Shown piece after piece: positions 27,694-49,545 of a stretch of DNA of 64,000 nucleotides. Within the stretch, counting starts at the first letter, position 1, and every line of letters begins with the position of its first letter. A program made the position numbers and the translations under genes. Below the pieces are notes generated by a model. It was not told the DNA's origin and made no database searches. It saw only the letters and a program-made list of their open reading frames with translations. Origin of the DNA: Candidatus Binatia bacterium (GTDB taxonomy: Bacteria; Desulfobacterota; Binatia; UBA9968); NCBI GenBank assembly GCA_036504975.1, contig DASXUF010000173.1, positions 2,745 to 66,744 of the forward strand. The letters run 5' to 3'.

Positions 27694-27987
27694 ATGGCCC
27701 AGCCATCTTCATATTCCCGGCCGCCCCGTGAGCGATCCGACGAAGAGAAGGGCGGTGGCCGCCGCCGGCCCATGATGCGGCGCAAAGTTTGCCGCTTTTG
27801 CGCCGATAAAGAGGCCAGGATCGATTACAAGGACATCAGAATTTTGACCCAGTTCGTCACCGAGAGAGGAAAGATCACTCCCAGCCGGATCACCGGCACG
27901 TGCGCGCGTCATCAGCGACTTCTCACGGTCGCGATCAAGAGGGCGCGCAGCGTCGCCCTCCTGCCGTTCACCACAGTCAAAAACTGA
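27694..27987 (+). CDS. rpsR: 30S ribosomal protein S18
   Basis: [53 protein letters not shown]. Confidence 0.9.
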
Positions 27988-28011
27988 GCGGGTTCTACTC
28001 TGCGGCTCGTT

Positions 28012-28965: not shown

Positions 28966-29052
28966 AAAAAGCGGCTTTCAGCGGTTAGCCGTCTCCGCCC
29001 AAGGCGGATCAGCCTCCGGCTGAAGCGATGAGTTGAAAAGAAGGAGCAAGCC

Positions 29053-29508: not shown

Positions 29509-29562
29509 GGGCCTTGTTTTTTTGGAGAGGTGTCCGCAGCGCCGGTTTCGAATGAGACCGAT

Positions 29563-30642
29563 ATGGCTTCGCGAACTCTGGCCCGCCTAACGGTAAGATC
29601 ACTCATCCTCTTCACCTCGCTTGCCTTTCTGTGCGTTCCCAGACCGCTGGACGCGCGCAACGAATATTATATCGGAGAGAAGCTTGTCTCCTATCAGGTT
29701 TACCGGGCCGCAATTCTCGTCAACGAAACCCTTCCGCTTATCAACTCAAACCGCCTGGAAGAAGCGAAAGAGAAACTGCTGAACGCCCTCAAGCTAGCCC
29801 CGGATTTTCCCGAGGCTCACTATAATTTAGCGTTGGTTCTGTCGCGACTCGGTAAGACCGAGGAGGCTTTACAGCGATTGAGGGCGCTCGTAGCCATGAA
29901 GACAGAGCTTCCGGTGGCCTGGTTGCTGCTCGGCAACCTCTATCTTACCACTGGACAGCTCGAGGAAAGTGTCAAGTATTCCCAGGAATTCGTTCGGCGA
30001 TTTCCCAATGATCCGGAAATTCCGTTGGTGGTCGATGAGATCAAAATTTTGGAACGGGAGTTGGAACAGTCGAGGCTATATGTTAACAGCGCAGACCGGG
30101 CAAAAACCGGCGAAGATTACTTTTTTAAAGCCACCCGGAATGGAACGAAAAAATGGCCGGCCGAGTCGATGCCGTTACGAGTGTATATTCATCCGTCCCA
30201 AGGCATAACGGGATTCCACCCCCGGTACGACGATATACTCAGGGCCTCTTTCGACAATTGGGCCGCAGCCTCTCGTGGGGCGGTGGCGTTCAGGTTTGTC
30301 GAGGACCTTGCGCAGGCCGATATTGCATGTCTCTGGAGCGGCGATCCGTCGCAACTTAGCAATCGCGTCGAGGCGGGCGAAGCGATGGTATTCTTTCAGG
30401 AAGACGGCCTTATCAAGAAAGCCGCCATGGTTATCTTGACGGTTCCGGTCAGCGCCATGCGCCCGATCGACGACGATTTGATAAGAGCCACCGCGCTTCA
30501 CGAGATCGGGCACGTTCTCGGTATTCTCGAGCATAGCGACAATCCCGTAGATATCATGTTCCTCTCCATGAGCCATAGGAATAAGAGCGGTCTGTCGGAG
30601 CGCGACAGAAAAACTTTAATTCGCCTCTACTCGGTCAAGTAG
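29563..30642 (+). CDS. secreted TPR-repeat / metzincin-type zinc metalloprotease fusion protein
   Basis: Signal peptide MASRTLARLTVRSLILFTSLAFLCVP. TPR repeats (AHYNLALVLSRLGKTEEAL). C-terminal HEIGHVLGILEH (HExxHxxGxxH zinc site, matrixin/M10-like). The alternative GTG at 29530 would add 11 aa. Confidence 0.65.
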   Translation: MASRTLARLTVRSLILFTSLAFLCVPRPLDARNEYYIGEKLVSYQVYRAAILVNETLPLINSNRLEEAKEKLLNALKLAPDFPEAHYNLALVLSRLGKTEEALQRLRALVAMKTELPVAWLLLGNLYLTTGQLEESVKYSQEFVRRFPNDPEIPLVVDEIKILERELEQSRLYVNSADRAKTGEDYFFKATRNGTKKWPAESMPLRVYIHPSQGITGFHPRYDDILRASFDNWAAASRGAVAFRFVEDLAQADIACLWSGDPSQLSNRVEAGEAMVFFQEDGLIKKAAMVILTVPVSAMRPIDDDLIRATALHEIGHVLGILEHSDNPVDIMFLSMSHRNKSGLSERDRKTLIRLYSVK

Positions 30643-30656: not shown

Positions 30657-31367
30657 TCAAATATTCATCGCCGCGCGAAAGCCGTAATCCGCGTACTTGA
30701 AAGCCGGGTTGAGCGAGCTGCGCGCAGCGCAGCGGCTGAATTTGATCTTGTGCCGCCACGATCCTCCGCGCGAGACTTTTCTCGGTCCGGAGGACGGGCC
30801 GGACGGATTCTTTTCCGGCGATATCTGATAATAGCTTGGATCGTAAAAGTCGCTGCACCATTCGTGAACGCTCGCGCTGATGTCGTAAAGACCGAACCCG
30901 TTCGGCTGGTTGGCGCCGACGCGCTCCGGGCCGCCGTGCTCGAGGTCATAACCAGCATATCCTCTCTCCTCCGGCGTCACGTCGCCCCACGGATATTTCC
31001 GGCTTTCCCTGCCACCGCGGGCGGCGCGCTCCCATTCCGCTTCCGTGGGAAGACGAAATGTTTTTTCGGTTCGCTCGCTCAACCAACTACAGTAGGCAGT
31101 GGCATGGTGCCAACTGACACCGACCACCGGCTTTTCCGGATGAGAGAACATCGGTTCCAAGCAAAAAGGCGGCGGCACGGATTTCGTCTGTTCGACGAAA
31201 ATTCGGTATTCGCGGTTGGTCACGGGGAACTTGCCGATTGAAAAACCGTCCACCCACACCCGGTGCACCGGTTTTTCGTTATCCATCCCGTCTTCGCTCC
31301 CCATGAGAAAATCGCCTTCGGGGATAGGGATCATCACCGGAATAAATTCTTTTTCCAGACGTGCCAT
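30657..31367 (-). CDS. formylglycine-generating enzyme (SUMF1/FGE) family protein
   Basis: Start refined to MARLEKEF (cat 31365-31367). Motifs GDFLMGS, RLPTEAEWERAARGG, RGGSWR. Confidence 0.8.
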   Translation of the reverse strand: MARLEKEFIPVMIPIPEGDFLMGSEDGMDNEKPVHRVWVDGFSIGKFPVTNREYRIFVEQTKSVPPPFCLEPMFSHPEKPVVGVSWHHATAYCSWLSERTEKTFRLPTEAEWERAARGGRESRKYPWGDVTPEERGYAGYDLEHGGPERVGANQPNGFGLYDISASVHEWCSDFYDPSYYQISPEKNPSGPSSGPRKVSRGGSWRHKIKFSRCAARSSLNPAFKYADYGFRAAMNI

Positions 31368-31398
31368 GATAGAAACGCTGTAATCGGGCACAAATTGT

Positions 31399-32258
31399 AT
31401 GTCAAACGGCGAAGAAAGGATTCTGACGACTGCGGATGCGGGCCGCGGCAGGCTTCTGATCCTCGTCACGGCGGTTTTGTGGAGTCTCGCCGGGGTTTTC
31501 ATCAAGTTTCTCGAGCTTCATCCGCTGACGATCGTTTTTTACCGCAGTCTTTTCGCCGGGATTTTTTTTCTGCCGCTGATCAAGGGAAAAAGCTGGAAGA
31601 TCAACCTGCCGGTTTTGGTATCCGCTCTGAGTTATACGGCCGCGATCAGCTCTTTCGTCTCGGCGAACAAGCTCACCACGGCGGCGAACGCGATCGTCTT
31701 GCAGTACTCGGCGCCGATCTTCGTGTTTATTTTCGCCCGCATCTTGTTTCGCGAGCCCATATCAAAACTCAATCTGCTGACGTTGATCGCGGGCACGGTG
31801 GGAGTGGGGGTGATATTTGCCGGCAGCGCCGGTCTTCCCGACATCGGCGGTGTCGGCGTCGCGCTTTTGAGCGGGCTTTTTTTTTCGATTTACATGACGA
31901 ATCTCAGGTTTTTGAAAGAGACCGATCCGGCGTGCTTGACGCTCGTGAACAATCTCGCCTGCTGCATCGCGCTTTTACCCTGGATCCATTCGCGGCTTAC
32001 CCTGACCGCGGTAGAGACGGTGACGCTATTCGTGATGGGCGTGATTCAACTAGGGATTCCGTACTTTCTCTTTTCCAAGGGGCTGGAAAAAATCCCGCTG
32101 CAAGAGGCGTCTCTGATCGTTCTCGTCGAGCCGGTCTGAATCCGATCTGGGTGGCGCTGGCTTTCGGCGAGATCCCTTCGAGCGCCACTCTGATCGGCGG
32201 CGGGATTATTTTGTTGAGCCTGGGAATCCGCTACGCCTGGCCGCCAAAAAAATGTTGA
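31399..32258 (+). pseudogene. EamA/DMT-family transporter interrupted by a 1-nt frameshift near 32134-32139
   Basis: Frame 1 ends ...SLIVLVEPV* at 32139. The downstream frame continues LNPIWVALAFGEIPSSATLIGGGIILLSLGIRYAWPP, the normal EamA C-terminus. Restoring one base in ccggtc-tgaat gives the contiguous VEPVLNPIW. Confidence 0.6.
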
Positions 32259-35274: not shown

Positions 35275-35478
35275 ATGAACGGTGAGCAGACCGAACTCAA
35301 ATTCCTGACCCTGGCCGAGGCTGCAACGATCCTGCAGGTGTCTAAACGGACTATTCTCAGGATGATCCAAAAGAAAGATGTCCCGGCGTTGAAAGTCGGC
35401 GGTCAGTGGCGGCTGCGAGAGAGCCAGTTGAAGAAATGGGCGGAGGAAAAAGAGGGCTTACTGGCGGCTTTCGAATAG
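35275..35478 (+). CDS. helix-turn-helix DNA-binding protein, excisionase/MerR-type (TIGR01764-like)
   Basis: MNGEQTELKFLTLAEAATILQVSKRTILRMIQKKDVPALKVGGQWRLRESQLKKWAEE. ATG 35275 preceded by GGAGGTG. No integrase nearby. Confidence 0.65.
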   Translation: MNGEQTELKFLTLAEAATILQVSKRTILRMIQKKDVPALKVGGQWRLRESQLKKWAEEKEGLLAAFE

Positions 35479-35589
35479 CGCTCCGGGAAAATAGGTTCAC
35501 TCAGCAAGCAATCGTCGTTTCAAAAGCAAGTCCAATGGCGCTTCATCGAGCCGATCAGCGGCGCAACGGACAGCCGAGGAGTAATTGAC

Positions 35590-38500
35590 GTGGGTCTCTC
35601 CGACCGCATGGCCGAAGCCTTACAAGAATCTTATCAAGGCTTAGAGAGAAAAATTACCGAAAGAACGCGGGACCTTTCGGCCCTCTATGCGGCTCTGGCG
35701 CCTTTGGCGTCTGCGGATCCCACCCGCTTGCTTCAACAAATCGTGGAGCGGCTCAAAGAGGCAACGGGCGCCGACGCCGCGCTCATTCGTATTCTCGACA
35801 AAGAAACAAAATCTCTTCGTTCTCCGGCTCACGTCGGGTTTTCTTCCGCTTACTTGCAGTCGACGCAGGATCTCGACGAAGGCTCGGCCGTCCGCGCCGC
35901 CTTCACGTCGGGCGAGCCGATCATCGCGGCGGATATTTCAAAAGATTCGCGGCTGAAGGGTAAGAAGCAAATAGAGGCGGGATTTCGCTCGTGCGCTTTT
36001 CTGCCCCTGAAAGTATCCGGCGAGCTGCGCGGAGTCGTCCATCTTGCCAGTGGCAAGGCCGGGCACTTCAGCGCGGATAAGATGGACAACCTCATGGCGA
36101 TCGCCCGTCAAATGGGCGTGGCCATGGAGAATCGCGAGCTGCTCGAGGAAACCAAGCGGCGCGCGGAACAGCAGGAGGCATTGGTCAAGTCGCTGAGCTT
36201 GCTCATCGGCGCGTCGCAGAAGCTGGTTGCGCGGGTCGATATCGACACGCTGGCTCAAGATATTTTGACAACCGTCGTGACCTCTTTCGGCATACGTTTG
36301 GCTTGGATCGGCAGCGCCGAATCCGACGGCCGAGTACGCCCGCTTTATTGGGCGGGAGACGTAGCGGAGTATCTGAGGCACGTCGAAATCCGCTGGGACG
36401 ATTCCCCGCTTGGACAAGGACCCGCCGGACGCGCCATCCGGACCGGCCGGCCGGTTGTCATGGACGTTGCCACCGATCCTGGATTTGAGCCGTGGCGCAA
36501 GCCGGCTCTTGACCATGGCTATCGCGAGGTCGCCGCATTTCCTCTTATGCGCGGCGCCACGCCGTTCGGCCACCTGATTCTCTACAGCAGCCAAAACGGT
36601 TTTTTTACTTCCGAGCGAGTGGAATTGCTGCAAACCTACGCGAATATCGCCACCGGCGCCCTCGAGAGCGCCCGTCTCTTTGAAGAGACCAAGCGCCAGG
36701 CGCAGGAAAAAGCGGCTTTGAACACGATCGCCACGGCTGTGAGCCAGTCGCTCGACGTGCAACAGATCCTAAACATCGCCATCGAAAAAGTGCTGGAAGT
36801 TACCGGCCGCGAGCGGGGTTACATCCGACTTAAAGATCTGGTTACTGGCGAGGTCACGCTGGCGGCCCACAAGGGGATCTCCGAGGAGTACGCTAACGTT
36901 CTCATTCACCAAAGGACTCCGGGAGGCAAGACCGATCAGGTCTTTACAACCGGGAAGCCCGTGATCATCAACGATCCCACGGCGATACCGCTCAAAGGAG
37001 AGACGCGCCGCGAGGGGCAAAATGTCGTGGCTTGGATTCCTGTGAAGGCGCGCGGCGAAGTGATCGGGATTCTCAACGTCGCCTCGGCGCGGCTGGTCCC
37101 TTTCTCGACTCAGGAAGTGGAGCTGCTCCAATCGATCGGGAATGTTATTGGAGTAGCCCTGGAAAACGCCTGGCTCTATAAAGAGTCGCAGCAGCATCAC
37201 GATATCCAAAAGCTTCTGAAGGAGGTGAGCCAGGACGTTACGGTTCTCGGTCTCGACCGCTCGCTCACGAAGATCGCAGATAAGGTTCGGGAGATGTTTA
37301 AAGTCGACATCGCCGATTTCCGGATTATCGAGGCAGGGGCCGCGAAGTACATCGGCCGGTCGGGGCAATGGTCCGAGCTTCTCGTGGGATCCGGTAAGAT
37401 GAGAGGGCGGATGAAATGGATTTTAGAGCATCGAACTCCTCTCATCATTCCGGATATCAACGTAGAGACGAACCTTCCCAGCGGCGATTCTATCCGGCAT
37501 CTCGGCCTCAGGGGTTTTCTCGCGGTGCCTCTCTTGTCGAGGAGCGCGGAGGTCATCGGCGTTCTCAGAGCGCTGACTTATTTGCCCCGAGACTTTAGGC
37601 CGGAACAGGTCGATTTTCTCCAGCAGTTGGCCAACGGGGTGGCCATTGCGATCGAGAATGCGCGCCTCTTCGAAGAGACCGTGCAGCGGGCGCAAGAGCA
37701 GGCAGCTCTTAGCGCGATCGCGACGGCGACCAGCCAATCACTTCACATCGACGAAATGCTCCATTTAGCGTTGGACAAGGTGTTGGAGGTCACAGGGCGT
37801 GAAAAGGGTTACATCAGGCTGAAGGATCCACTCACCGGCGACGTCAAGTTAGCAGCCCACCGGGGCATCTCCGATAAATACGTCACGCTTCTGCAACGCC
37901 GGACTCCGGGCGGTAAAAGCGATCAGGTTTTTGAAACGGGAGAACCGGTCATCATCAACGCTCCCGAAAAAGCGCTTCTCAGGGAGGAAACCCGTGATGA
38001 AGGCAACAGCTCCATCGCCTGGATTCCACTGAAGGCGCATGGGAAAGTCGTGGGGATCCTCAACGTCTCTACGGCTCAATCGGGTTTTTTCACCTCGCGT
38101 GAGGTGGATCTCTTGCAGGCCATCGGAAACGTGATCGGAGTCGCGGTTGAAAACGGCTGGCTTTACCAGGAATCCCAGCGGCAGGAGGAGATTCAAAAAC
38201 TCCTGAAGGAATTGAGCCAGGACATCACCTCTCTCGACATCAAATCTTTTTTTCAAAAGGTCACGGACAAAGTCCGCGAATACTTCAAGGTCGATATCTC
38301 GGACATCCGGCTGATCGAGCAGGGCGGGATTCTGCCGCCGGTCGGCTTGTCGGGTGCAGATTCCAAGCCTCTGTACAAATTGGGCGGACTGAGGGGACGA
38401 GCCGGATGGATCGTCAAAAATCGGCGCGCCGCGGTTATTTCGGATACCTCGAAAGACACGACTATTCCGGCCGGCGATACGACGCGTGAGATCGGTATCC

Positions 38501-41064
38501 GCGGCTATCTCGCCGTGCCGCTGTTCGCGCGGAGCGGCGAGGTCATCGGCATTCTCAGGGCGCTCACTTATAAACCGCGCGAGTTCAGCCAGTCCGAAGT
38601 CGATCTCGTCCAGCAGTTGGCCAACGGCACCGCGATCGCACTCACCAATGCCCGCCTCTTCGAGGAGACCGAGCGCCGGGCGCGCGAGCAGGCGGCTCTC
38701 TATGGCGTGACCGCGGCGGTCAGCGGCTCTTTCGATATCGAACAGATTCTTCTCAAGGGTCTCGATGCGGTCCTCGAAGCGACCGGCATGGAAGGGGGAT
38801 ACATCCAGTTTCTTGATGGAAACCCTCCGAAGCTCGTCCTTAGAGCGCATCGCGGGATGTCCCAGACCTTCATCGCGAAGACTCGCGATGAAATTCGTCC
38901 GGGCGGCAAGACGCAGCAGATTATCGCGACGAAACAGCCCCTGGTGCTGGAAGATATCGCTCCCGATCACGGAAAATTTCAGGGCGAGAACATCACCGCC
39001 GCCGCGTGGGTGCCGATCGTGGCGAAAGACAAAGTGATCGCGGTTCTCGCCGTCAGCACCAAGACCAAACGCCATTTTCCCCAGGCCCAGCTCCCGCTCC
39101 TGGTCTCGATCGCCAACGCCCTCGGCGTGGCGCTGGAGAACGCCCGGCTGTTTCAGGAGACCGAGCGCAACCTCGAGCGCATCCGCGCGCTCCGAGAGAT
39201 CGACCAAGCCATTTCCTCGACCCTGGACCTGCGCAACGTCCTCGATGTTTTGCTCGAGAAGATCGATCTCTCCCTTCCCTACGCGACGGCTACCATCAGG
39301 CTGTTTAACAAAGAGAACGGCATGTTGGAGCCGGTCGCCTGCCGGAATCTGGACGAAAACGAATGGAAGCTCGAGCAATGGAAACCGGGCCGCGGCATCG
39401 CCAATGTCGTGTTCGAGACCAAGACCCCTTTGATCATCCCGAACGCGCAGGCCGACCCGCGCGTGCTCGACGCCGAGTTTTACCGCAAGCACAGGCTCAC
39501 CTCCTATGTCGGCGTTCCGTTGATCGTGAAAGAGGAGGCGCTTGGGGTGCTTGGGTTTTACACCAAGGAGGAGCACGACTTCACCGGCGAGGAAGTCGAT
39601 TTTCTCGCCACCCTGGCGGGTCAGGCGGCGATCGCCATTCACAATTCGCAGCTCTACGAGAATGCCCGCCTTAGAGAAAAGCAACTGGAGGAAACCAACC
39701 GGATGCTTTCGGCGCTCCATGCGGTGGCGGCGACGGCGAGCCAATCGCTGGATCTGGATCGGGTCTTTCAATCGGCCATCGGGAAGATCACCGACATTTT
39801 CGGCTTCGACGCCACCCATATTCATATCTACAACGAGCGCACGGACGAGCTGGCGTTAAGAGCCAGTTTCGAGAGCGATCCGAATCGTTTCGTCCCGGTC
39901 CAGTCCTTCCAGAGGGGCCAAGGCATTGTCGGCGAGGTGGCGGAATCGGGCCGATCTATGATCTTTGAAGACGTTCAGACCGATCCCACATACCAAAAGC
40001 TCAGCCGCAGCAAGACCTCGGGCTGTGCCGGCTATCATCTTTTCGCGGTCTTCCCGATCAAGGGCAAGCTGAGAAACTTGGGCACTCTGGCATGCACCGG
40101 CATAGACCCGCGAAAATTGACTCCGGGCGAAATCCAACTCCTCGAGGCGGTCGCGGACCAAGTCGCCGTGGCGATCGAAAACGGCCAGCTTTACGAGCAG
40201 CTCCGACAGAAGGTCGAAGAGCTGATGCAGGCGAACAAAGTCAAAGACGAATTCTTGAGCGTCATGTCGCATGAGCTGAGGACGCCGCTGAACGTGGTCA
40301 TGGGCTACGCGGCGATGATCAAGGACGAGATGCTGGGGGTCGTCAATCTGGAGCAGAAGCGGGCGTTGGAGAAAGTCATCAGCCGCTCGAGCGATCTTTT
40401 GAACATGATCACAAGCATTCTCTACGCCACCAGCATTGAGGCCAAAGAGGTCCGGGTGCAAAACAGCGAGTTCGGCTTGAGCGATCTGCTCGACGAGCTC
40501 AAGAGAATCTACGACATCTCTCTGCTCAAGCCGATTGCGCTCGACTGGGATTACGCTCCCGGCTTGCCTCAGGTGTTTTTGGATCGCGACAAAGCGCGGG
40601 TCGTACTGCAGAAACTCATCGACAATGCGACCAAATTCACCGAGACCGGCGGCGTCACCGTCACCGCGCGCCTGAGCGAGGGCCGGAAGCAGAATCCGGA
40701 AAACAGTCGGCGCGAGGCGCCGCTTCCCGAACCTGCCAACGGCTGGTTGTTCTTGGAGCCGCCGTGGCTGGAAGTGAAGGTGACCGATACCGGGGTGGGA
40801 ATAGCCAAGGACAAGCTCCCCGTTATCTTCGACAAGTTCCGCCAGGCCGACAGCTCGGAGACCCGGCGTTATGGCGGCGTCGGCCTGGGACTTTATATCG
40901 CCAAGCACTTCACCGAATTGCTGGGCGGTCATATCGAAGTCGAGACGGAGGAAGGAAAAGGATCGATTTTTACACTCAAGGTACCGTGCCCGATCTTGCC
41001 GTCGTCGGCGAGTTCAAAGAGCGAAAATATCGAATTGACCGGCCATGTGTCCCAGATTCACTAA
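35590..41064 (+). CDS. cytoplasmic sensor histidine kinase with nine tandem GAF domains + HisKA + HATPase_c (HK1)
   Basis: 1824 aa. Nine repeats, each ending in a linker of the form ...IENARLFEET... C-terminal H-box LSVMSHELRTPLNVVMGYAAMI and G1/G2 boxes (DTGVGI, GGVGLGLYIAKHF). No TM or receiver domain. Confidence 0.85.
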   Translation: MGLSDRMAEALQESYQGLERKITERTRDLSALYAALAPLASADPTRLLQQIVERLKEATGADAALIRILDKETKSLRSPAHVGFSSAYLQSTQDLDEGSAVRAAFTSGEPIIAADISKDSRLKGKKQIEAGFRSCAFLPLKVSGELRGVVHLASGKAGHFSADKMDNLMAIARQMGVAMENRELLEETKRRAEQQEALVKSLSLLIGASQKLVARVDIDTLAQDILTTVVTSFGIRLAWIGSAESDGRVRPLYWAGDVAEYLRHVEIRWDDSPLGQGPAGRAIRTGRPVVMDVATDPGFEPWRKPALDHGYREVAAFPLMRGATPFGHLILYSSQNGFFTSERVELLQTYANIATGALESARLFEETKRQAQEKAALNTIATAVSQSLDVQQILNIAIEKVLEVTGRERGYIRLKDLVTGEVTLAAHKGISEEYANVLIHQRTPGGKTDQVFTTGKPVIINDPTAIPLKGETRREGQNVVAWIPVKARGEVIGILNVASARLVPFSTQEVELLQSIGNVIGVALENAWLYKESQQHHDIQKLLKEVSQDVTVLGLDRSLTKIADKVREMFKVDIADFRIIEAGAAKYIGRSGQWSELLVGSGKMRGRMKWILEHRTPLIIPDINVETNLPSGDSIRHLGLRGFLAVPLLSRSAEVIGVLRALTYLPRDFRPEQVDFLQQLANGVAIAIENARLFEETVQRAQEQAALSAIATATSQSLHIDEMLHLALDKVLEVTGREKGYIRLKDPLTGDVKLAAHRGISDKYVTLLQRRTPGGKSDQVFETGEPVIINAPEKALLREETRDEGNSSIAWIPLKAHGKVVGILNVSTAQSGFFTSREVDLLQAIGNVIGVAVENGWLYQESQRQEEIQKLLKELSQDITSLDIKSFFQKVTDKVREYFKVDISDIRLIEQGGILPPVGLSGADSKPLYKLGGLRGRAGWIVKNRRAAVISDTSKDTTIPAGDTTREIGIRGYLAVPLFARSGEVIGILRALTYKPREFSQSEVDLVQQLANGTAIALTNARLFEETERRAREQAALYGVTAAVSGSFDIEQILLKGLDAVLEATGMEGGYIQFLDGNPPKLVLRAHRGMSQTFIAKTRDEIRPGGKTQQIIATKQPLVLEDIAPDHGKFQGENITAAAWVPIVAKDKVIAVLAVSTKTKRHFPQAQLPLLVSIANALGVALENARLFQETERNLERIRALREIDQAISSTLDLRNVLDVLLEKIDLSLPYATATIRLFNKENGMLEPVACRNLDENEWKLEQWKPGRGIANVVFETKTPLIIPNAQADPRVLDAEFYRKHRLTSYVGVPLIVKEEALGVLGFYTKEEHDFTGEEVDFLATLAGQAAIAIHNSQLYENARLREKQLEETNRMLSALHAVAATASQSLDLDRVFQSAIGKITDIFGFDATHIHIYNERTDELALRASFESDPNRFVPVQSFQRGQGIVGEVAESGRSMIFEDVQTDPTYQKLSRSKTSGCAGYHLFAVFPIKGKLRNLGTLACTGIDPRKLTPGEIQLLEAVADQVAVAIENGQLYEQLRQKVEELMQANKVKDEFLSVMSHELRTPLNVVMGYAAMIKDEMLGVVNLEQKRALEKVISRSSDLLNMITSILYATSIEAKEVRVQNSEFGLSDLLDELKRIYDISLLKPIALDWDYAPGLPQVFLDRDKARVVLQKLIDNATKFTETGGVTVTARLSEGRKQNPENSRREAPLPEPANGWLFLEPPWLEVKVTDTGVGIAKDKLPVIFDKFRQADSSETRRYGGVGLGLYIAKHFTELLGGHIEVETEEGKGSIFTLKVPCPILPSSASSKSENIELTGHVSQIH

Positions 41065-41108
41065 GGCGGTTGCGGCTTCGTCGTTTCGACCGCCGGCGCG
41101 CTAAATCT

Positions 41109-43796
41109 ATGCGGCAAAAACTCGTACAGTTAACGCTCGGCAACATCGCGGGTCGCCTCTGGTCGCTCCTGCCCTCGGGCGGCTCCCTGCCCGACGAGGT
41201 CTGGCGCAACCGGCACCGCTTTCTCGTCGGGCTCACGTGGTTCCATGCGGTCATCATCGCTCTTCTGGGGCTGATATTGAGCGAAAACTGGGAAGTGAGC
41301 CTGAGCGCGATTTACCATGAAGACACCCTGCTCCACGCGGTTTCCGAAGGATTGCTGGTCGGCGGGTTTGCGTTCTTGGGCAGCAGGCTCAAAGCCAGTC
41401 GCGCCTTGCGCGCCGCGCTCGTGGGCTTGGGACTGATCAGTTCCTCCGCCATTCTCGTGCATCTTTTTGGCGGCTACATCGAGCTTCATTTCCACTTCTT
41501 TGTCATGCTCACCTTTCTCGCGCTCTACCAGGATTGGTTCCCCTTCGGACTATCGATCTTGTACGTCGCGGTGCATCACGGCGTGGTGGGCGTCCTGTGG
41601 CCCACGGAAGTCTACAATCATCCCGCGGCGATCGAATCTCCCTGGACGTGGGCCGGCATCCACGCTTTCTTCGTGCTCTGGGCTTCCGTCGGAAGCGTGA
41701 TCGCCTGGCGTCTGAACGAGGCGGCGATCGCCCGCACCAAACTCATTTTGAACTCGGCCGGCGAAGGCATCTTCGGCGTCGACGCCGACGGCAAAGCTAT
41801 TTTCGTGAATCCGGCGGCGGAGAAGATGCTCGGCTATCAGATGACGGATCTGAACGGCCGGAGCATGCACGACGTTCTGCGCCATGCGCGAGCGGATGAG
41901 ACGCCATGCGCCGGTGAAGAATGCCCCGTATGCGCCGTGTTGAAGGACGCGACCGTCCACCAGGCAAGCGAGGAAGTGTTCCGGAGTAAGGACGGCACGG
42001 GCTTCCCCGTGGATTACGTGAGCACACCCATCATCGAAGGCGGGGAATTGCGCGGCGCCGTCGTGACTTTTCGAGACGTGAGCCAGCGCCAGCAAGCGGA
42101 GAGGGCGCAGAGAGAAAGCGAGCTCCGATTTCGCCAGATGGCTGAGAACATCAAGCAGGTTTTTTGGATAACCGATACGCTGACTAACGCGTGGCTCTAC
42201 GTCAGTCCCGCCTACGGTGAAATATGGGGGCGCAGCGCCGAAGCGCTCGGCCCGATGGCCCAGTCCTGGCTTGGCGCGATCCACCCGGAAGATCTCGAGC
42301 GGGTGCTCGCCGCCGTACGAACGAAGCAGGTCACGGGAAGCTACGACGAGGAGTACCGGATCGTGCGGCCCGACGGATCGATCCGTTGGATTCGCGACCG
42401 TGCCTTTCCGGTAAGAAACGACTCGGGCAGGAACTATCGCGTCGCGGGCATCGCCGAGGACATCACCGAGCGCAAGCGCGCGGAAGAGGACGCGGAGCGC
42501 AATTTGGAGCGCTTGCGGGCGCTCAGGGATATCGATCATGCCATTTCTTCGAGTCTGGATCTCCGGACGGTCCTCGCCGTGCTGATGGAGAAGATCGATC
42601 TCGTTCTGCCTTATGCCGTCGTTACCGTGAGGCTTTTCAATAAGGCGAGCGGCCTGCTCGAGCCCGTCGCCTGCCGAAACCTGGACGAAAACGAATGGAA
42701 AGAAGCTCAGTGGAGAGGCGGGCGGGGCATCAGCAACGTCGTGTTCGAGGGCAAGGCGCCGCTCATCATCCGGGACACCCTGGCCGACGCTCGAGTCGTG
42801 GACGGTGAATTTTACCGCAAGCATAGCCTGATTTCATACGTCGGGGTTCCATTGACCGTCAAAGAAGACACTCTAGGCGTGCTCGGCTTCTACACCAAAG
42901 AGGAGCACGATTTTACCGGCGAGGAAGTCGAGTTTCTCATGACGCTCGCCGGCCAGGCGGCCGTCGCGATCCATAATTCCCAGATCTACGAGGAGATGGC
43001 GCAATTGGCGGTCGACTTGGCGAGCTCCAACAAGGTGAAGGACGAATTCTTGAGCGTGATGTCGCATGAGCTGAGAACGCCGCTGAACGTGGTGATGGGC
43101 TATGCAGCGATGATCAAAGACAAGCTGCTCGGCGAGGTGAGTCCGGAGCAGAGCCATGTCCTGGATAAGTTGATGAGCCGGATGCGCTCCCAACTGGATA
43201 TGGTCAACGGCATCCTGCAGGCGACCCAGATCCAGGCGCACAATGTCACGATCGATCAAGAAGAGGTGAGCGTGGCCAATCTTTTAAACGAGCTTCAATT
43301 GGCTTACAGGGCTGCCCTGGACAAGCCGGTCAAGCTCATCTGGGACTATTCCCCGGATTTGCCTGCGATCCAGAGCGACGGCAAGAAGTTGAAGCAGATT
43401 CTGGCGAACCTGGTGGATAACGCCATCAAGTTCACCGACGAAGGCCGCGTCACCGTCTCTGCCAGAGTAAAGGAAGGCGACAAGGCTGTGGAGTTGCGGG
43501 TCGAGGACACCGGCCGCGGGATTCCGGCCGAAGCGCTGCCCATTATTTTCGAAAAATTTCGCCAGGCGGATAGCTCGGAGACGCGCCTCCACGGCGGGAT
43601 CGGTCTGGGACTCTACATCGCCAAGAACTTCGCCGAGCTTCTCGGCGGCGCGATCAAAGTCGAGACCGCGGTGGGGAAGGGGTCGGTCTTTACCGTGACG
43701 ATCCCGTGCTCGGAGCATTCGTCGAAAACATATCCTCCGGGAGACAAATCGACGGCGAGCGGTCACGCCCGGGAGTTCGGGCCGGTGTCGTTTTAG
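41109..43796 (+). CDS. membrane sensor histidine kinase: His-rich polytopic TM domain + 2 PAS (one Cys-rich) + GAF + HisKA + HATPase_c (HK2)
   Basis: Real start MRQKLVQLTL at 41109; the upstream 115 codons of the 1010-aa track ORF overlap HK1. TM region with many conserved His. PAS with PCAGEECPVC. Confidence 0.85.
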   Translation: MRQKLVQLTLGNIAGRLWSLLPSGGSLPDEVWRNRHRFLVGLTWFHAVIIALLGLILSENWEVSLSAIYHEDTLLHAVSEGLLVGGFAFLGSRLKASRALRAALVGLGLISSSAILVHLFGGYIELHFHFFVMLTFLALYQDWFPFGLSILYVAVHHGVVGVLWPTEVYNHPAAIESPWTWAGIHAFFVLWASVGSVIAWRLNEAAIARTKLILNSAGEGIFGVDADGKAIFVNPAAEKMLGYQMTDLNGRSMHDVLRHARADETPCAGEECPVCAVLKDATVHQASEEVFRSKDGTGFPVDYVSTPIIEGGELRGAVVTFRDVSQRQQAERAQRESELRFRQMAENIKQVFWITDTLTNAWLYVSPAYGEIWGRSAEALGPMAQSWLGAIHPEDLERVLAAVRTKQVTGSYDEEYRIVRPDGSIRWIRDRAFPVRNDSGRNYRVAGIAEDITERKRAEEDAERNLERLRALRDIDHAISSSLDLRTVLAVLMEKIDLVLPYAVVTVRLFNKASGLLEPVACRNLDENEWKEAQWRGGRGISNVVFEGKAPLIIRDTLADARVVDGEFYRKHSLISYVGVPLTVKEDTLGVLGFYTKEEHDFTGEEVEFLMTLAGQAAVAIHNSQIYEEMAQLAVDLASSNKVKDEFLSVMSHELRTPLNVVMGYAAMIKDKLLGEVSPEQSHVLDKLMSRMRSQLDMVNGILQATQIQAHNVTIDQEEVSVANLLNELQLAYRAALDKPVKLIWDYSPDLPAIQSDGKKLKQILANLVDNAIKFTDEGRVTVSARVKEGDKAVELRVEDTGRGIPAEALPIIFEKFRQADSSETRLHGGIGLGLYIAKNFAELLGGAIKVETAVGKGSVFTVTIPCSEHSSKTYPPGDKSTASGHAREFGPVSF

Positions 43797-43820
43797 CAAA
43801 GCGTCGCGCTGGAAAAGATT

Positions 43821-46800
43821 GTGAAGTCCAAGAAAAAAACTGCTGCGCTCGCCGAAAGAATCGCCGAAAGGAATTCCGATCTTTCCGCTCTCGCCCGAGA
43901 ACAACAGGCGCTCAACATGATCGCCCAGGCCGTCAGTCAATCGCTGCACCGCGACGAGCTGCTGGAGATCGCGCTCGACAAGGTTCTGGAGGTCACCGGC
44001 CGCGAGCGGGGAACGATCAGGCTCAAAGATTCGGTCACCGGCGACGTCAAGCTGTCGGCCCACCGCGGCTTCTCCGAAGAGGAAATAGCGGAGCTGCGTC
44101 GCAACATGCCGCATCGAATCAGCGAGCAGATTTTTGCTTCCGGCCAGCCGCTCGTCGTCAACGATCGGGCGGAGCTCCGTAACACGCAGTCTCTGTTGCC
44201 CCAAAGCCGCTCGGTCGCCTGGATCCCGATCAAGGCGCGGCAAAAAGTCGTCGGCGTGCTCGGGGTTTCCGCGGGCCGGCCCATACCATTTAGGCAACGC
44301 GAGGTCGATCTTCTTCAGGCGGTTGGCAGCGTCATCGGCGTCGCGATCGAAAATGCCCGGCTCTTCGAAGAAACCGGACGCCGGGCGCGCGAGCTGGCCG
44401 CGCTGCATGCGGTGACGGCCGCGGTCAGCGGCTCTTTCGATCTCGATCAGATTCTCCTCAAGGGTCTCGACGCGGTCCTCGAAGTAACGGAAATGGAAGT
44501 GGGTTACATCCAGTTTCTCGATGGCCACCCGCCCAGGCTTCTCCTCAAGGCGCATCGCGGCATGTCCGAATTGTTTCTCACGAGGTTCCAGGGCCGAGTT
44601 CGTCCGGGCGGCAAGACCGAGCAGATCATCGCGACGCGACAACCGCTGGTGCTGGAAAATATTCCCGCCGATCACGTGGGAAAATTCTCGGGCGAAAGAG
44701 TCACCGCGGCGGCGTGGGTGCCGATCACGTCGAAGGACAAAGTCATCGGCGTTCTCACCATCAGCACCAAAACCAGACCGACCTTTCCCCTGGCCCACCT
44801 TCCGCTGTTGGCCTCGATCGGCAATACGCTCGGGGTCGCGCTGGAGAACGCCCGGCTTTTCGAAGAAACCAAACAGCGCGCTCACGAGCAAGCGGTGCTC
44901 TCCGCGGTTGCCATGGCGATGAGCGAGTCGCTTCAGCTCGACGAGCTTCTGCGGATCGCGTTGGACCGGGTGCTCGAGGTCACCGGGAGGGAGCAAGGAT
45001 ATATACGGCTAAAAGATCCCGTCACCGGCAACCTAACGCTCGCCGCCCACCGCGGCGTTTCGGAAAATTATCTCCAAACGCTGCTGCATGGGCGCACGCC
45101 GGGCGGCAAGAGCGACCGCGTTTTCAAATCGGGGGAGCCGCTGGTCATCAACGATCCCGAAGGCTTTCAGCTCAAGGAACAGACCCGCCGCGAAGGAAAC
45201 CGCTCCTTCGTATGGGTTCCGTTAAAGGTGGGAGGAAAAACGGTCGGCATCGTGAACGTCTCGACGAGCCGGCCGCTTCCGTTCCAGCCGCGAGAAGTGG
45301 AGCTTTTGAAGGCGATCGGCAACGTGATCGGCGTGGCGCTGGAGAACGCGCGTCTCTTCAACGAAACCGAGCGGAGTCTGGAGCGCATCCGGGCGCTGAG
45401 AGAAATCGACCAGGCCATCACCACGAGTCTGGATCTGCGCACGATCCTGGACGTGCTGATGGAAAAAATCGATCTCGTCCTCCCGTACGCCGCGGCGACG
45501 GTGCGATTGCATAACAAGGAAAGCGGCTTCTTGGAACCCGTCGCCTGCCGAAACCTGGACGAAGAAGAATGGAAGAAAGCGCAGTGGAAAGGCGGACGGG
45601 GCATCGCCAACGTCGTTTTCGAAAAGCGGGCGCCGCTGATTATCCGCAACGCCCAGGCGGACGCGCGCGTGCTCGACGCCGCGTTTTACCGCAAGCACAG
45701 CCTGACCTCATACGTGGGAGTTCCCTTGCGGGTCAAGGACGAGGTCCTGGGGGTGCTCGGTTTCTACACCAAAGAGGAGCACGAATTCACCGGCGAGGAG
45801 GTCGAGTTCCTGATGACGCTGGCGGGGCAGGCGGCCATAGCGATCCACAAGTCCCAGCTTTACGAGGAGGCGCGTACTCGGGAAAAGGAAATGCAAGAAA
45901 CCAACCGCATGCTCTCGGCGTTGCATGCGGTGGCCGCCGCGGCGAGCCAATCGCTGGACCTCGACCGGGTCGTGCGCGCGGCGATCGAGAAAATTACCGA
46001 AATATTAGGCTTCGACGCGACGCAAATCCACGTTTACAACGGGCGCTCGGACGAGCTGGTCATGCGCGCCTACTACGAGATGGACCCGAAACTTTTCGTT
46101 TCGGTCCGAGCATTTAAGGTCGGACAAGGCATCGTCGGCAAAGTGGCCGAATCGGGCCAGCCGTTGATCTTCGAGGACGTCCTTACCGATCCGTTGTATC
46201 AAAGTCTCAGCCGCACGAAAGCGTCGTACCAGTTGGGCTATCATTTCTTTGCCGTCTTTCCGATTCGCGGCAAGCTCAGAAGCTTGGGCACGCTCGCCTG
46301 CACCGGCATCGACTCCCGGCGTTTGAGCTCCGGCGAGGTCCAACTGCTCGAGGCTATGGCGGACCAGATTGCCGTGGCGATAGAAAACACCGGGCTCTAC
46401 GAGCAGTTGACGCAGAAAGTCGACGAGCTGCAATTCAAGACCGAAGAGCTCCAGCGCGCCAACAAAGTCAAGGACGAATTCTTGAGCGTGATGTCGCACG
46501 AGCTCCGAACGCCGCTGAACGTCGTCATGGGTTATACCGCGATGATCAAGGACCAGATGGTCGGCGCGGTGAATCCGGAGCAGAGTCAAATTCTGGAGAA
46601 GCTGATGAGCCGCGTGCGCTCTCAGCTCGACATGGTCAACAGCATATTGCAGGCGACCCAGATTCAGGCGGCTACCGTCGCTCTCGAGCGCGAAGAAGTC
46701 AAGTTGAAAGATCTTCTCGACGGTCTCAAATCGGACCACAGCGCCAATTTGACCAAGCCCCTGACTCTGATCTGGGACTATCCACGGGACTTGCCCGCGA

Positions 46801-47276
46801 TCCAGAGCGACGGCAAAAAGCTGAAGCAGATTCTGGAGAACTTGATCCACAACGCCATCAAGTTCACCGACCAGGGCTGTGTGACCGTCTCGGCGAAGAT
46901 AACAGAAGGCGGTATGCGGAAAGCAGTAAGCAGCGGGCACGAAGCTGAGATTCTGCCTGCTGCCGACCGCCTGCTGGCTACGGGGAGGCGGTGGCTGGAG
47001 TTGCGGGTTGCGGACACCGGGCGCGGGATTCCGGCGCAAGCGCTGTCCATTATTTTCGAAAAATTTCGCCAGGCGGACAGCTCCGAGACCCGGCGCTACG
47101 GCGGCGTCGGCCTGGGACTTTATATCGTCAAGAACTTTACCGAACTCCTCGGCGGCGCGGTCGAGGTCGAGACCGAGGAAGGAAAGGGATCGATCTTTAC
47201 TGTGACGATTCCTTGCACGGTCTCGTCTTCGGCTGCGGAACGCCCGGAGGAATCCAAAAGGCTGAAATCCGCGTGA
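43821..47276 (+). CDS. cytoplasmic sensor histidine kinase with five tandem GAF domains + HisKA + HATPase_c (HK3)
   Basis: 1151 aa; same module grammar as HK1. H-box LSVMSHELRTPLNVVMGYTAMI. Confidence 0.85.
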   Translation: MKSKKKTAALAERIAERNSDLSALAREQQALNMIAQAVSQSLHRDELLEIALDKVLEVTGRERGTIRLKDSVTGDVKLSAHRGFSEEEIAELRRNMPHRISEQIFASGQPLVVNDRAELRNTQSLLPQSRSVAWIPIKARQKVVGVLGVSAGRPIPFRQREVDLLQAVGSVIGVAIENARLFEETGRRARELAALHAVTAAVSGSFDLDQILLKGLDAVLEVTEMEVGYIQFLDGHPPRLLLKAHRGMSELFLTRFQGRVRPGGKTEQIIATRQPLVLENIPADHVGKFSGERVTAAAWVPITSKDKVIGVLTISTKTRPTFPLAHLPLLASIGNTLGVALENARLFEETKQRAHEQAVLSAVAMAMSESLQLDELLRIALDRVLEVTGREQGYIRLKDPVTGNLTLAAHRGVSENYLQTLLHGRTPGGKSDRVFKSGEPLVINDPEGFQLKEQTRREGNRSFVWVPLKVGGKTVGIVNVSTSRPLPFQPREVELLKAIGNVIGVALENARLFNETERSLERIRALREIDQAITTSLDLRTILDVLMEKIDLVLPYAAATVRLHNKESGFLEPVACRNLDEEEWKKAQWKGGRGIANVVFEKRAPLIIRNAQADARVLDAAFYRKHSLTSYVGVPLRVKDEVLGVLGFYTKEEHEFTGEEVEFLMTLAGQAAIAIHKSQLYEEARTREKEMQETNRMLSALHAVAAAASQSLDLDRVVRAAIEKITEILGFDATQIHVYNGRSDELVMRAYYEMDPKLFVSVRAFKVGQGIVGKVAESGQPLIFEDVLTDPLYQSLSRTKASYQLGYHFFAVFPIRGKLRSLGTLACTGIDSRRLSSGEVQLLEAMADQIAVAIENTGLYEQLTQKVDELQFKTEELQRANKVKDEFLSVMSHELRTPLNVVMGYTAMIKDQMVGAVNPEQSQILEKLMSRVRSQLDMVNSILQATQIQAATVALEREEVKLKDLLDGLKSDHSANLTKPLTLIWDYPRDLPAIQSDGKKLKQILENLIHNAIKFTDQGCVTVSAKITEGGMRKAVSSGHEAEILPAADRLLATGRRWLELRVADTGRGIPAQALSIIFEKFRQADSSETRRYGGVGLGLYIVKNFTELLGGAVEVETEEGKGSIFTVTIPCTVSSSAAERPEESKRLKSA

Positions 47277-47286
47277 TGGTGGACGA

Positions 47287-49530
47287 ATGAATAGATTTTC
47301 CTTCTCGGGGCTCCGCGTCCGCTTGATCCTGCTGGTTCTTTTGGCCGTGATCCCGGCCTTGGGACTGATCTTCTACGCGGCCTCTGCGCCGGACGAGCAT
47401 AACATGGCGCACAGTCTGGTTTGGCTCATGATCGTTTTGCTGTTGACCCTGGCCGGCGCTTGGTGGGGCGGTAACTGGCTGATCGTCGGGCAATTGAAGA
47501 GATTGATGGAAGCGACTGAAAAGCTCGGCACCGGTGATCTCGACGCGCGGGTTGCCGTTTCGAACGGCGACGGCGAGCTGCAAAAACTTGCCCGAGGGTT
47601 CAATCAAATGGCCGAAGGCCTGCAACGTCGCGACGCCGAGACGAAGCTGGCGCAAAGCGAGCTCAAGCGGCTGCTGCGGCAGAGCACGGCGCTGCGCGAG
47701 ATCAACCTCGCCGTCACCTCGAGTCTGGATTTACGCGCGGTATTGGGGGTCTTGATGGAGAAAATCCAGATCCTGCTTCCTTACGCCGTGCTTCTCGTCT
47801 GGCTCAGGAACCGCGAGACCGGAGAACTGGAGCGGACGGCTTGCTGGAACATCGATGAAGCCGACTGGAAGCGGCGGAAGAACAAGGACGCGCCGCCGAT
47901 TATCAAAGCGGCGATTGAAAATCAGAGTCCGGTTTCCGTCCTCGACGTGCCCACCGATCCCCGGACCGAGAATCCGGAGTTCTACCGCCGGAACGGCGTG
48001 GTCTCCTATCTCGGAGTCCCCCTGATCGTCAAAGGCGAGGCGCTGGGGGTTTTGGCCTTTCTGACACGCGAGCGGCACGAATTCACCGCCGAGGAGGTAG
48101 AGTTCTTGTCCTCCCTGGCGGGCCAGGCGGCGGTGGCGATCCATAACTCTCAGCTTCACGAGCAGAGCAAAAGACAGGCGGTCGAGCTCGAGAAAGCGAA
48201 CAAGGATTTAAGTCGAAAGGAAGCGATCCAGGCGCTGCTCAAGGAGCTAAGCCAGGACATCGCGTCTCAGGACGTGGGAAGCTTGCTTAAAAAGCTCACC
48301 GACAAAGTGTGCGAGTTCTTCAAAGTGGACATCGCCGACGTGCGCATCATCGACAACGGCGTGCCGCGCATCCTCGGCGTCTCCGGCGTCGACGAAGAGA
48401 AGATGCGGCTCGGCAGCACCGGCAGCGGCAGAGGCGCATCGGGATGGATCGTCGCAAACCGCAGACCGCTCGCGATAGCGGACTTGACGAAAGTAAAAAA
48501 TCCTCCGATCGGCCGGACGACGCGCCGCATCGGCATCCACGGCTATCTTGCCGTGCCGTTTTTTTCCCGCAGCGGAGAAGTCCTGGGCGTTCTCCGGGCG
48601 TTGACCTACCGGCCGAGAGAGTTTCTCCAGGAGGAAATAGATCTGTTGCAGCAGATGACCAACGGCGCCGCCATCGCGTTGGAAAACGCCCGGCTTCTGG
48701 AGCAGACCCAGACCCAGGCGGCCGAGCTCAGGCAGGCGAACAAGGTCAAGAACGAGTTTCTGGGCTTCGTGTCGCACGAGCTGAGGACGCCGGTGAACGT
48801 CATCATGGGTTATGCGGCGATCCTGCAAAGCAAGATGCTGGGCGAGATCAACGCCGAGCAGGACAACGCGCTGGAAAAAATGAGCGTCAATTCGAAAGAG
48901 CTGCTGAGCATGATCGAACTGCTTTTGGAGGCGACCAAGATCGAGGCCGGCGCCGCGGCGGTGGAGATCGCGGAAGTCAATTTGTCCGATTTTCTCGAGG
49001 ATCTAAAATCCGCCTACTCCATTCCGTTGAAGAAGCAGATACGTCTGGATTGGGATTGGCCCAAGAACTTTCCCGTTATAAAAACCGACCGCGAGAAGCT
49101 GAGACACATCCTGCTGAACGTCATCGGCAACGCGGTCAAATATACCGAGCAGGGCAGCGTCGGCGTTTCGGCGCGCTATCTGGTCGAACAGGGGCGGGTC
49201 GAGTTCGAAGTCACGGACACCGGGATCGGCATTCCGAAAGAGGAGCTGCCGCGCATCTTCGAGATGTTCTCTCAAGTCCGCAGCGCCCGGTCCAAGTCTT
49301 CCGGCGGAGTGGGCCTCGGCCTTCACATCGTCAAGAAGTTTACCGAGCTGCTCGGCGGAGACATCCGCGTGACGAGCGAAGAGGGCAAAGGATCGACGTT
49401 TGCGATAAGGTTGCCCACCGGCGGCCAGGCCGGGCAGGCGCCCGACCGTCAGGACTTTCGCGCGGATGAATCTTCGGCTGCGCGAGAAAAAGAAAGCGCC
49501 GAGCGTCCGGTCCCGGCGGGGGATTCTTGA
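47287..49530 (+). CDS. membrane sensor histidine kinase: 2 TM + HAMP + 2 GAF + HisKA + HATPase_c (HK4)
   Basis: 747 aa. Two hydrophobic helices, HAMP (GDLDARVAVSNGDGELQKLARGFNQMAEGL), H-box FVSHELRTPVNVIMGYAAIL. Confidence 0.85.
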   Translation: MNRFSFSGLRVRLILLVLLAVIPALGLIFYAASAPDEHNMAHSLVWLMIVLLLTLAGAWWGGNWLIVGQLKRLMEATEKLGTGDLDARVAVSNGDGELQKLARGFNQMAEGLQRRDAETKLAQSELKRLLRQSTALREINLAVTSSLDLRAVLGVLMEKIQILLPYAVLLVWLRNRETGELERTACWNIDEADWKRRKNKDAPPIIKAAIENQSPVSVLDVPTDPRTENPEFYRRNGVVSYLGVPLIVKGEALGVLAFLTRERHEFTAEEVEFLSSLAGQAAVAIHNSQLHEQSKRQAVELEKANKDLSRKEAIQALLKELSQDIASQDVGSLLKKLTDKVCEFFKVDIADVRIIDNGVPRILGVSGVDEEKMRLGSTGSGRGASGWIVANRRPLAIADLTKVKNPPIGRTTRRIGIHGYLAVPFFSRSGEVLGVLRALTYRPREFLQEEIDLLQQMTNGAAIALENARLLEQTQTQAAELRQANKVKNEFLGFVSHELRTPVNVIMGYAAILQSKMLGEINAEQDNALEKMSVNSKELLSMIELLLEATKIEAGAAAVEIAEVNLSDFLEDLKSAYSIPLKKQIRLDWDWPKNFPVIKTDREKLRHILLNVIGNAVKYTEQGSVGVSARYLVEQGRVEFEVTDTGIGIPKEELPRIFEMFSQVRSARSKSSGGVGLGLHIVKKFTELLGGDIRVTSEEGKGSTFAIRLPTGGQAGQAPDRQDFRADESSAAREKESAERPVPAGDS

Positions 49531-49545
49531 GGGAGGCCTCAGAGT

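Follow-up and report, generated by a model that had tools for sequence, protein, structure and literature searches.

In a 64,000-nucleotide stretch of contig DASXUF010000173.1 from a Candidatus Binatia bacterium (assembly GCA_036504975.1; the whole 64-kb stretch is referred to as the window) one gene, here called HK1, encodes an intact class-I (HisKA/HATPase_c) sensor histidine kinase that is soluble and carried on the chromosome; its whole sensory region is made up of nine GAF domains in a row. Binatia is a class within the candidate phylum Binatota. We put the probability of the explanation given here, taken as a whole, at roughly 0.8.

HK1 is a single open reading frame (ORF) of 1824 residues (aa), which remains open for 5.5 kb, and a 100% identical protein has already been deposited as 'MAG TPA: GAF domain-containing protein [Candidatus Binatia bacterium]'. 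Nine GAF stretches are found with each of three Pfam models (GAF_2 at E 1.7e-162, GAF at E 2e-131 and GAF_3 at E 1.5e-83), and the whole-protein scores of 534, 433 and 278 bits compare with cut-offs of 28.6, 22.4 and 27. A hidden Markov model (HMM) built from the HK1 units finds all nine again (E 1e-53 to 1e-65). An earlier inspection of the DNA, made without database searches (the sequence-only reading), had proposed nine GAF units in one cytoplasmic HisKA kinase, separated by recurring linkers. Both proposals hold, and the HMM segmentation identifies the repeats as genuine GAF domains and not as other folds. The linker motifs (...ENARLFEE or ...ENxWLYxE) occur nine times, seven times as found by a regular expression and twice as variants, and were used to set the unit boundaries. 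The chain is followed by HisKA and HATPase_c, and all boxes of the latter are readable in the sequence (LIDNATKF, DTGVGI, FDKFRQ and GGVGLGL). A transmembrane segment is absent from HK1, as had been stated before: the highest Kyte-Doolittle mean over 19 residues is only 1.62, and lies within a charged beta-strand segment. Concerning the start site, the block GAGGT-AAnTGAc-GTG at the kinase start is kept in six syntenic loci (described below), and GAF unit 1 begins at approximately residue 22 in most HK1 homologues. The features of the gene are as follows (units are abbreviated U1 to U9; a and b denote the two types that alternate in U3 to U6; DHp, dimerization and histidine phosphotransfer).

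35576-35592 (+): ribosome-binding site GAGGAG(T), 8-nt spacer and GTG start codon (read from the sequence)
35590-41064 (+): HK1 gene, soluble sensor histidine kinase with 9 GAF, HisKA and HATPase_c (ORF, Pfam)
35653-36150 (+): GAF unit 1 (aa 22-187), N-terminal type (Pfam, unit HMM)
36151-36687 (+): GAF unit 2 (aa 188-366), own type with longer loops (Pfam, unit HMM, clustering)
36688-37185 (+): GAF unit 3 (aa 367-532), a-type (EVTGRERGYIRLKD), 62% identity to U5
37186-37677 (+): GAF unit 4 (aa 533-696), b-type (KVDIADFRIIE), 55% identity to U6
37678-38172 (+): GAF unit 5 (aa 697-861), a-type, paralogue of U3 (DNA repeat at an offset of 987-990 nt from U3)
38173-38667 (+): GAF unit 6 (aa 862-1026), b-type, paralogue of U4 (pairwise identity, direct repeat)
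38668-39159 (+): GAF unit 7 (aa 1027-1190), diverged a-like type (40% identity to U3/U5, separate cluster)
39160-39663 (+): GAF unit 8 (aa 1191-1358), PVACRNLDE type (orthologues 89% identical)
39664-40200 (+): GAF unit 9 (aa 1359-1537), kinase-proximal type (Pfam, unit HMM)
40243-40443 (+): HisKA (DHp) domain (aa 1552-1618), H-box HELRTPL with His1561 (Pfam E 3e-14, 53.2 bits against a cut-off of 26.9)
40582-40989 (+): HATPase_c domain (aa 1665-1800) with N, G1, F and G2 boxes (Pfam E 5.9e-23)

As a separate observation, in the HATPase_c domain of HK1 the N box is separated from the G1 box by an insert of approximately 27 residues (...SEGRKQNPENSRREAPLPEPANGWLFLEPPW...). The same is seen in HK3, one of the adjoining kinases (aa 997-1132, approximately 46809-47216), and in both proteins the 109 profile positions are covered by 136 residues.

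The nine units are far from uniform. Global pairwise identity is 62% for U3/U5, 55% for U4/U6 and 40% for U7 against U3 or U5, with all other pairs at 21-32%, and average-linkage clustering of 251 units (those of homologues included) gives seven unit types within HK1. On the basis of these comparisons U7 is an old a-like offshoot, and U1, U2, U8 and U9 each form a type of their own. The cluster of U7 is kept at 84-87% identity in orthologues. The U8 type is also present in the adjoining kinases (77% identity in HK2, 81% in HK3, 52% in HK4 and 61% in HK5), the U9 type is always located directly before HisKA (in the orthologues as well as in HK3) and the U1 type comes after HAMP in those relatives that have dCache and HAMP. 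The sequence-only reading had distinguished at least three sequence types in an a-b-a-b pattern. All three motifs are indeed present (EVTGRExGYIRLKD in U3 and U5, KVDIxDxR(I/L)IE in U4 and U6, PVACRNLDE in U8 only), but clustering resolves seven types. Likewise the alternation is clear for U3-U4-U5-U6 (62% and 55%) but does not extend to the remaining units, and thus describes only four of the nine.

The further proposal that the array grew by duplication of a two-GAF cassette is well supported by the DNA. Direct repeats in HK1 have a period of 987-990 nt, corresponding to two units, and the longest of them spans 263 nt at 71% identity (37447-37709 against 38437-38699). The all-versus-all comparison of units, which was extended to the DNA level, dates the duplication as old: the codon-aligned nucleotide identity is 64% for U3/U5 and 63% for U4/U6, the identity at third positions is 38% and 48%, respectively (against a background of 27-42%), and the synonymous divergence (dS, Nei-Gojobori) is saturated for U3/U5 and 1.19 for U4/U6. 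Since synonymous sites are at or near saturation, the duplication is ancient. Moreover, every HK1 unit is nearer to a unit of another organism (68-89%) than to its paralogue inside HK1; the best counterparts elsewhere reach 86% for U1, 89% for U2, 83% for U3, 68% for U4, 78% for U5, 81% for U6, 87% for U7, 89% for U8 and 78% for U9. The duplication is therefore older than the split of those lineages. Cassettes U3-U4 and U5-U6 are thus the products of an ancient tandem duplication of 990 nt. The cassette is also recognizable as a unit in the wider family: all 31 instances measure 328-332 aa, and when these 31 cassettes are compared with one another the distances between a units correlate with those between b units (Mantel r 0.40, reached by none of 2000 permutations), which indicates that a and b tend to travel together. 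Younger internal duplications are seen in relatives of HK1, with 80% identity between units 6 and 8 of P0002 (contig L004, 6001-13768) and 84% between units 4 and 7 of P0032; given such high identities within one protein, expansion of the cassette is ongoing in the family.

HK1 stems from a metagenome-assembled genome and contains internal repeats with a period of 990 nt, and for these reasons the long array might be thought of as an assembly artefact, that is, a chimeric or repeat-expanded contig. We consider this very improbable. The longest exact internal repeat of HK1 DNA measures only 19 nt and the internal repeats are 63-78% identical at the DNA level, so there is nothing for an assembler to collapse or expand. 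In addition, the 5.5-kb frame is open with its catalytic motifs intact, and independent assemblies of other samples agree with HK1 in the order of units around the cassettes and in synteny. The artefact reading was consequently rejected.

For comparison within the family, GAF domains were counted in the 120 best homologues (HK1 included) using the HMM made from the HK1 units, and the units of the homologues were typed both by their best HK1 counterpart and by the clustering mentioned above. The Binatia family has a common grammar, U1(-U2)-(a-b)n-...-U7-U8-U9-HisKA, in which U1 is often followed by U2 and the chain usually ends with U7-U8-U9 and always with U8-U9. Four unit orders illustrate this:

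P0007: 1-a-b-7-8-9
P0004: 1-a-2-a-b-7-8-9
HK1: 1-2-a-b-a-b-7-8-9
P0002: 1-2-a-b-a-b-a-b-a-x-a-x-7-8-9

In P0002 the a-b cassette is thus found three times in a row, after which it continues in degenerate form, a further sign that a two-GAF cassette was duplicated.

The genomic context is shared as well. The order DeoC aldolase, Zn-dependent alcohol dehydrogenase (ADH), HTH_17 protein (66-70 aa), multi-GAF kinase and further sensor kinases is found in the window and in eight independent contigs, drawn from JGI, ENA, NCBI and Logan assemblies (contig L005 ends before the DeoC and ADH genes, and contig L004 ends within the kinase gene). Ribosomal-protein genes adjoin the region, which belongs to the core chromosome and not to a mobile element. 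At this syntenic position the number of GAF domains is 6 (P0007), 8 (P0004, P0003), 9 (HK1, P0012), 10 (P0005, P0009) or, in P0002, which is cut short by the end of its contig, at least 15, and the differences among these orthologues mostly amount to a different number of a-b cassettes. Eight unit types have a partner in P0002 or P0004 close enough for comparison, and for each of them the ratio of nonsynonymous to synonymous divergence (dN/dS) lies within 0.06-0.20 (0.07-0.10 for U2). Purifying selection thus keeps all eight tested units, none of which looks like a decaying copy.

With one locus, shared end modules and a differing number of a 330-residue cassette, the Binatia orthologues form a clean comparative series that could be used to study how signals propagate through helix-linked sensors. 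We tentatively suggest, as a speculation with only a modest chance of being correct, that this Binatia lineage may gain, lose and reshuffle the a-b cassette at a single orthologous kinase locus, as a mobile plug-in by which the helical phase is preserved. Cassette number would then be an evolvable setting of the cooperativity or threshold of the switch, and the invariant HTH_17 protein could perhaps be an unconventional output partner. If true, nature would have provided an experiment on how far a conformational signal travels along a chain of helix-linked domains.

The sequence-only reading had also assumed that concatemers of this length are rare outside cyanobacteriochromes, and this assumption did not survive. 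At least nine GAF domains (range 9-15) are present in 31 of the other 119 proteins among the best 120 homologues, or 32 of 120 if HK1 is counted, the maximum of 15 being reached in a partial Binatia protein of 2589 aa. A search with the nine-unit profile against 1.84 billion representative proteins gave 263,646 proteins at E <= 0.001, and among the best 150 of these up to 23 matched stretches were seen. The same 150 include 141 new proteins, 123 of which contain nine or more GAF domains according to the unit HMM. Nearly all of these arrays lack the Cys-His motif; in the library proteins a Cys-His dipeptide occurs in merely 18 of 1545 units. Named sources of long arrays are Herpetosiphon sp., Anaerolineales and the cultured Variovorax robiniae (WP_340333471.1, 3673 aa). 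Literature searches on 'multiple GAF domains' and similar terms returned papers on cyanobacteriochromes or phytochromes only, and a search on Binatia in combination with GAF returned nothing relevant. The rarity of long GAF chains that are not photoreceptors therefore holds in the literature but not in sequence space. HK1 belongs to a known and widespread kind of protein which, as far as the searched literature shows, is experimentally unstudied.

The closest company of HK1 consists of uncharacterized multi-GAF HisKA kinases from Binatia, Chloroflexota (Herpetosiphon, Anaerolineales) and others, Variovorax robiniae for example. Like HK1 they contain 9 to more than 20 GAF domains spaced at approximately 165-175 aa, in most cases followed by a HisKA H-box. 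The Binatia members have the unit types, the cassette and the synteny in common with HK1, whereas members from other groups are only 21-27% identical to it overall and often add REC, PAS or TPR modules. The protein itself is already deposited and automatically annotated, and its parts are textbook domains. Its practical significance is modest for now. What deserves attention is the class: GAF chains of such great length (9 to more than 20 units) that do not serve as photoreceptors are widespread and apparently unstudied.

To obtain a view of the cassette in three dimensions, a model of U3-U4 was built with AlphaFold2 and 20 a-b cassettes were aligned. The model has a mean predicted local distance difference test (pLDDT) score of 83.7 and a predicted template modeling (pTM) score of 0.69, and contains two alpha/beta GAF cores with the GAF order of strands and helices in both halves. 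A single predicted helix of 47 residues (cassette residues 141-187) joins the two cores, and the termini of the model are helical too (residues 2-19 and 305-329), from which a similar continuous helix may be expected at the b-to-a junction. In a Foldseek search against the PDB all matches with a probability of 1.00 are GAF-containing structures, including the following (TMq, query TM-score):

GAF-PHY of Cph1 phytochrome: TMq 0.68
PDE5A GAF-A/B: TMq 0.63-0.64, E 1e-16
PDE2A: TMq 0.50-0.52
CyaB2 tandem GAF: TMq 0.46-0.47

The sequence identity of the cassette to these targets is low (13-19% for the phosphodiesterase (PDE) GAFs, 10-17% for phytochrome GAFs). For U3-U4 the structure prediction, which had been proposed earlier as a check, thus gives two GAF domains joined by a continuous helix, resembling PDE5A GAF-A/B. 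In the 20 aligned cassettes several polar residues in or around the predicted GAF beta-strands are invariant, namely T39, R41 and S65 in the a half and D207, D210, S225, W244, D256, R294 and R301 in the b half.

Inter-GAF helical linkers and S-helices have been described as coiled-coil signal conduits (Anantharaman, Balaji and Aravind 2006, PMC1592074). S-helix connectors between sensory domains and HisKA were proposed in that work to be parallel coiled coils which transmit conformational change in dimers; the predicted 47-residue inter-GAF helix of HK1 can be placed next to them, although the linkers between GAF domains are treated there as a related but distinct class. Along these lines, and from what is established for HisKA kinases, HK1 would dimerize via its DHp domain as a parallel homodimer, in which each GAF would be linked to the next by one continuous helix, the resulting spine running into the DHp helix that carries His1561. 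Small cytoplasmic ligands in one or several of the GAF pockets would shift the packing or register of the helices along the spine, and this change would in turn set the rate of autophosphorylation at His1561. The presence of seven distinct and individually conserved unit types, with polar residues that differ between a and b, argues for several inputs and not for nine copies of one. The tightly kept length of the cassette fits a need to preserve the helical phase.

A number of points weigh against this picture of an anciently duplicated chain that integrates several inputs. The model covers the U3-U4 junction only, and continuity at the other eight junctions is deduced from their similar linker sequences, while dimerization, which lies outside the model, is likewise presumed. 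None of the units can be given a ligand; among solved GAF domains the nearest align with U8 at no better than E ~1e-10, and what they bind differs from one to the next. The least conserved unit is U4 (best counterpart 68%), and the dN/dS values consequently refer to eight units without U4. The signal of co-inheritance between a and b is no more than moderate (r 0.40), and the order of cassettes varies by lineage, as the b4-type follows the b6-type in P0008 and precedes it in HK1. The modest r and the differing order of b subtypes show that shuffling has been at work as well as simple tandem duplication. Finally, a tblastn search of the 64-kb window with the receiver domains of CheY, OmpR and NtrC gave nothing better than E 0.027, so that a response regulator was not detected there. 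Orphan kinases are common, and the lack of a response regulator nearby does not exclude membership of the histidine kinases.

The main rival concerns the a-b cassettes, which could serve for spacing and transmission. Most GAFs would then be ligand-free structural modules, the array being a rigid rod, spacer or oligomerization scaffold in which only one or two units sense (U8-U9 or U1, for instance) and cassette number tunes length or gain. Such an arrangement would go well with the free variation in cassette number among orthologues (6 to at least 15 GAFs) next to constant U1 and U8-U9, with the cassette length of 328-332 aa, as expected if helical phase outweighs pocket content, with the position of U4 as least conserved unit and with the U8-type being the sole GAF of the neighboring kinases HK2 and HK5. 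However, purifying selection acts on the a and b units no less strongly than on U8 and U9 (dN/dS 0.06-0.20), and their invariant polar residues in the 20 cassettes exceed what a spacer needs. We therefore regard a mere spacer as possible but doubtful, and retain the multi-input chain.

The sequence-only reading had put forward integration of several ligands or cooperative binding of small molecules such as cyclic nucleotides. The latter, a PDE/CyaB-like sensor in which repeated cassettes bind one and the same cyclic nucleotide to give an ultrasensitive response, is suggested by the superposition of the cassette model on the GAF-A/B tandems of PDE5A and PDE2A and on the CyaB2 tandem, as well as by the best solved sequence match of U8 (5w10, deposited as 'cGMP-specific phosphodiesterase'). 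In mammalian PDE2/5/6 and the cyanobacterial adenylyl cyclase CyaB2 (PDB 3lfv, 3ibj, 1mc0, 1ykd), as in the U3-U4 model, two GAF domains are located on a long continuous helix upstream of a catalytic output. Yet HK1 has nine units in place of two, a HisKA kinase as output and an identity to the PDE GAFs of only 13-19%, and the N-K...F-x3-D-E (NKFDE) arrangement is missing: its only two NK dipeptides (at 1240 and 1549) do not lead to F-x3-DE. As phytochrome GAF-PHY fits the fold equally well, the match reflects the geometry of tandem GAFs and not ligand specificity, and seven differing unit types speak against a single ligand. This sensor thus seems unlikely.

Transfer of a ligand from the solved relatives of U8 was tried and rejected, because these relatives bind unrelated ligands and are too distant. 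Its nearest sequences are 5w10 (E 1e-10), the PtsP GAF 3trc, an HD-GYP GAF, Nlh1, DevS and NreA. DevS/DosS and DosT of Mycobacterium (PDB 2w3d, 4ynr, 2vzw) resemble HK1 in being soluble histidine kinases with a sensory part made of GAF domains only, but they are heme sensors with two GAFs and a kinase of the HisKA_3 type, and the match of the DevS GAF to U8 is weak (E 1e-5) and restricted to the C-terminal half of the domain.

Almost every multi-GAF array described in the literature is a cyanobacteriochrome, with examples of three to seven GAFs (PMC6696110, PMC5812497), and these photoreceptors share with HK1 a long tandem array upstream of a signaling output with units that have diverged within the protein. 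Together with phytochrome GAF-PHY as the top fold match, this might suggest a bilin-binding photoreceptor. The reading was rejected and we consider it extremely improbable, given that HK1 contains neither a Cys-His dipeptide nor DxCF and has only five cysteines in 1824 residues (135, 1251, 1479, 1502 and 1800). The sequence-only reading had already noted the lack of a chromophore-type Cys-His motif. Furthermore, the bilin-attachment Cys is absent, the units are of the GAF_2 or small-molecule type, the host is a Binatia bacterium and not a cyanobacterium, and identity to phytochrome GAFs amounts to 10-17%.

The genes that surround HK1 in the window are:

35275-35478 (+): HTH_17 DNA-binding protein gene, 67 aa, immediately upstream of HK1 (Pfam HTH_17 E 2.1e-16)
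41065-51642 (+): four further sensor kinase genes, HK2 (PAS-PAS-GAF), HK3 (5xGAF), HK4 (HAMP-2xGAF) and HK5 (Tll0287-like-GAF) (Pfam)

A nearly invariant HTH_17 (PF12728) protein of 66-70 aa is located directly upstream of the multi-GAF kinase in all syntenic loci (L001 9694-9906, L002 6975-7178, L004 5588-5788, L005 693-899, L006 2604-2807, L007 7777-7980 and L008 7777-7977). Its core LTLAEAA(T/I)ILQVSKRTILRMIQKK(D/E)VPALKVGGQWR(L/M)RESQL is almost unchanged, whereas the syntenic kinases are only 41-70% identical. Possibly the HTH_17 protein regulates the kinase cluster or works together with it; against the PDB it gives a weak match to 6amk (E 0.078). Scans of the intergenic region at 34.9-35.65 kb with Rfam and for promoters and terminators gave nothing meaningful: a single chance match to a long non-coding RNA (E 0.16), no sigma-70 match and terminator-like matches at chance level.

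Including HK1, five sensor histidine kinase genes are arranged head-to-tail on one strand (35590-51642, +). The GAF domains of HK2-HK5 belong to the unit types of HK1 (HK3 reads a-7-a-8-9), and the kinase cores of these four proteins are 49-55% identical to that of HK1. The number and kind of the downstream kinases vary among the syntenic loci, which, with unit types common to the paralogues, suggests recombination among tandem paralogues. Between the multi-GAF and the HAMP-2xGAF kinases, at the position of HK2/HK3 in the window, two loci have an ORF of 109-121 aa that contains only HATPase_c (L002 12197-12562, L003 5560-5889) and looks like what is left of a kinase gene after deletion or recombination. 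In two more distant syntenic clusters from Binatia a REC-only gene (150-159 aa) stands by itself among the kinases (L007 21861-21934, L008 18370-18849); the cluster in the window has no such gene. For HK2 the mechanically called ORF (40764-43796, 1010 aa) shares 300 nt with the 3' end of HK1 (40764-41064), and the syntenic homologue in L001 measures 781 aa; the true start of HK2 is probably located downstream of 41064.

Elsewhere in the window, the ORFs at 27900-28988 (+, 362 aa) and 31263-32258 (+, 331 aa) gave no Pfam match at E <= 0.001, and the ORF at 29530-30642 combines TPR repeats with a C-terminal segment of the matrixin type (Peptidase_M10).

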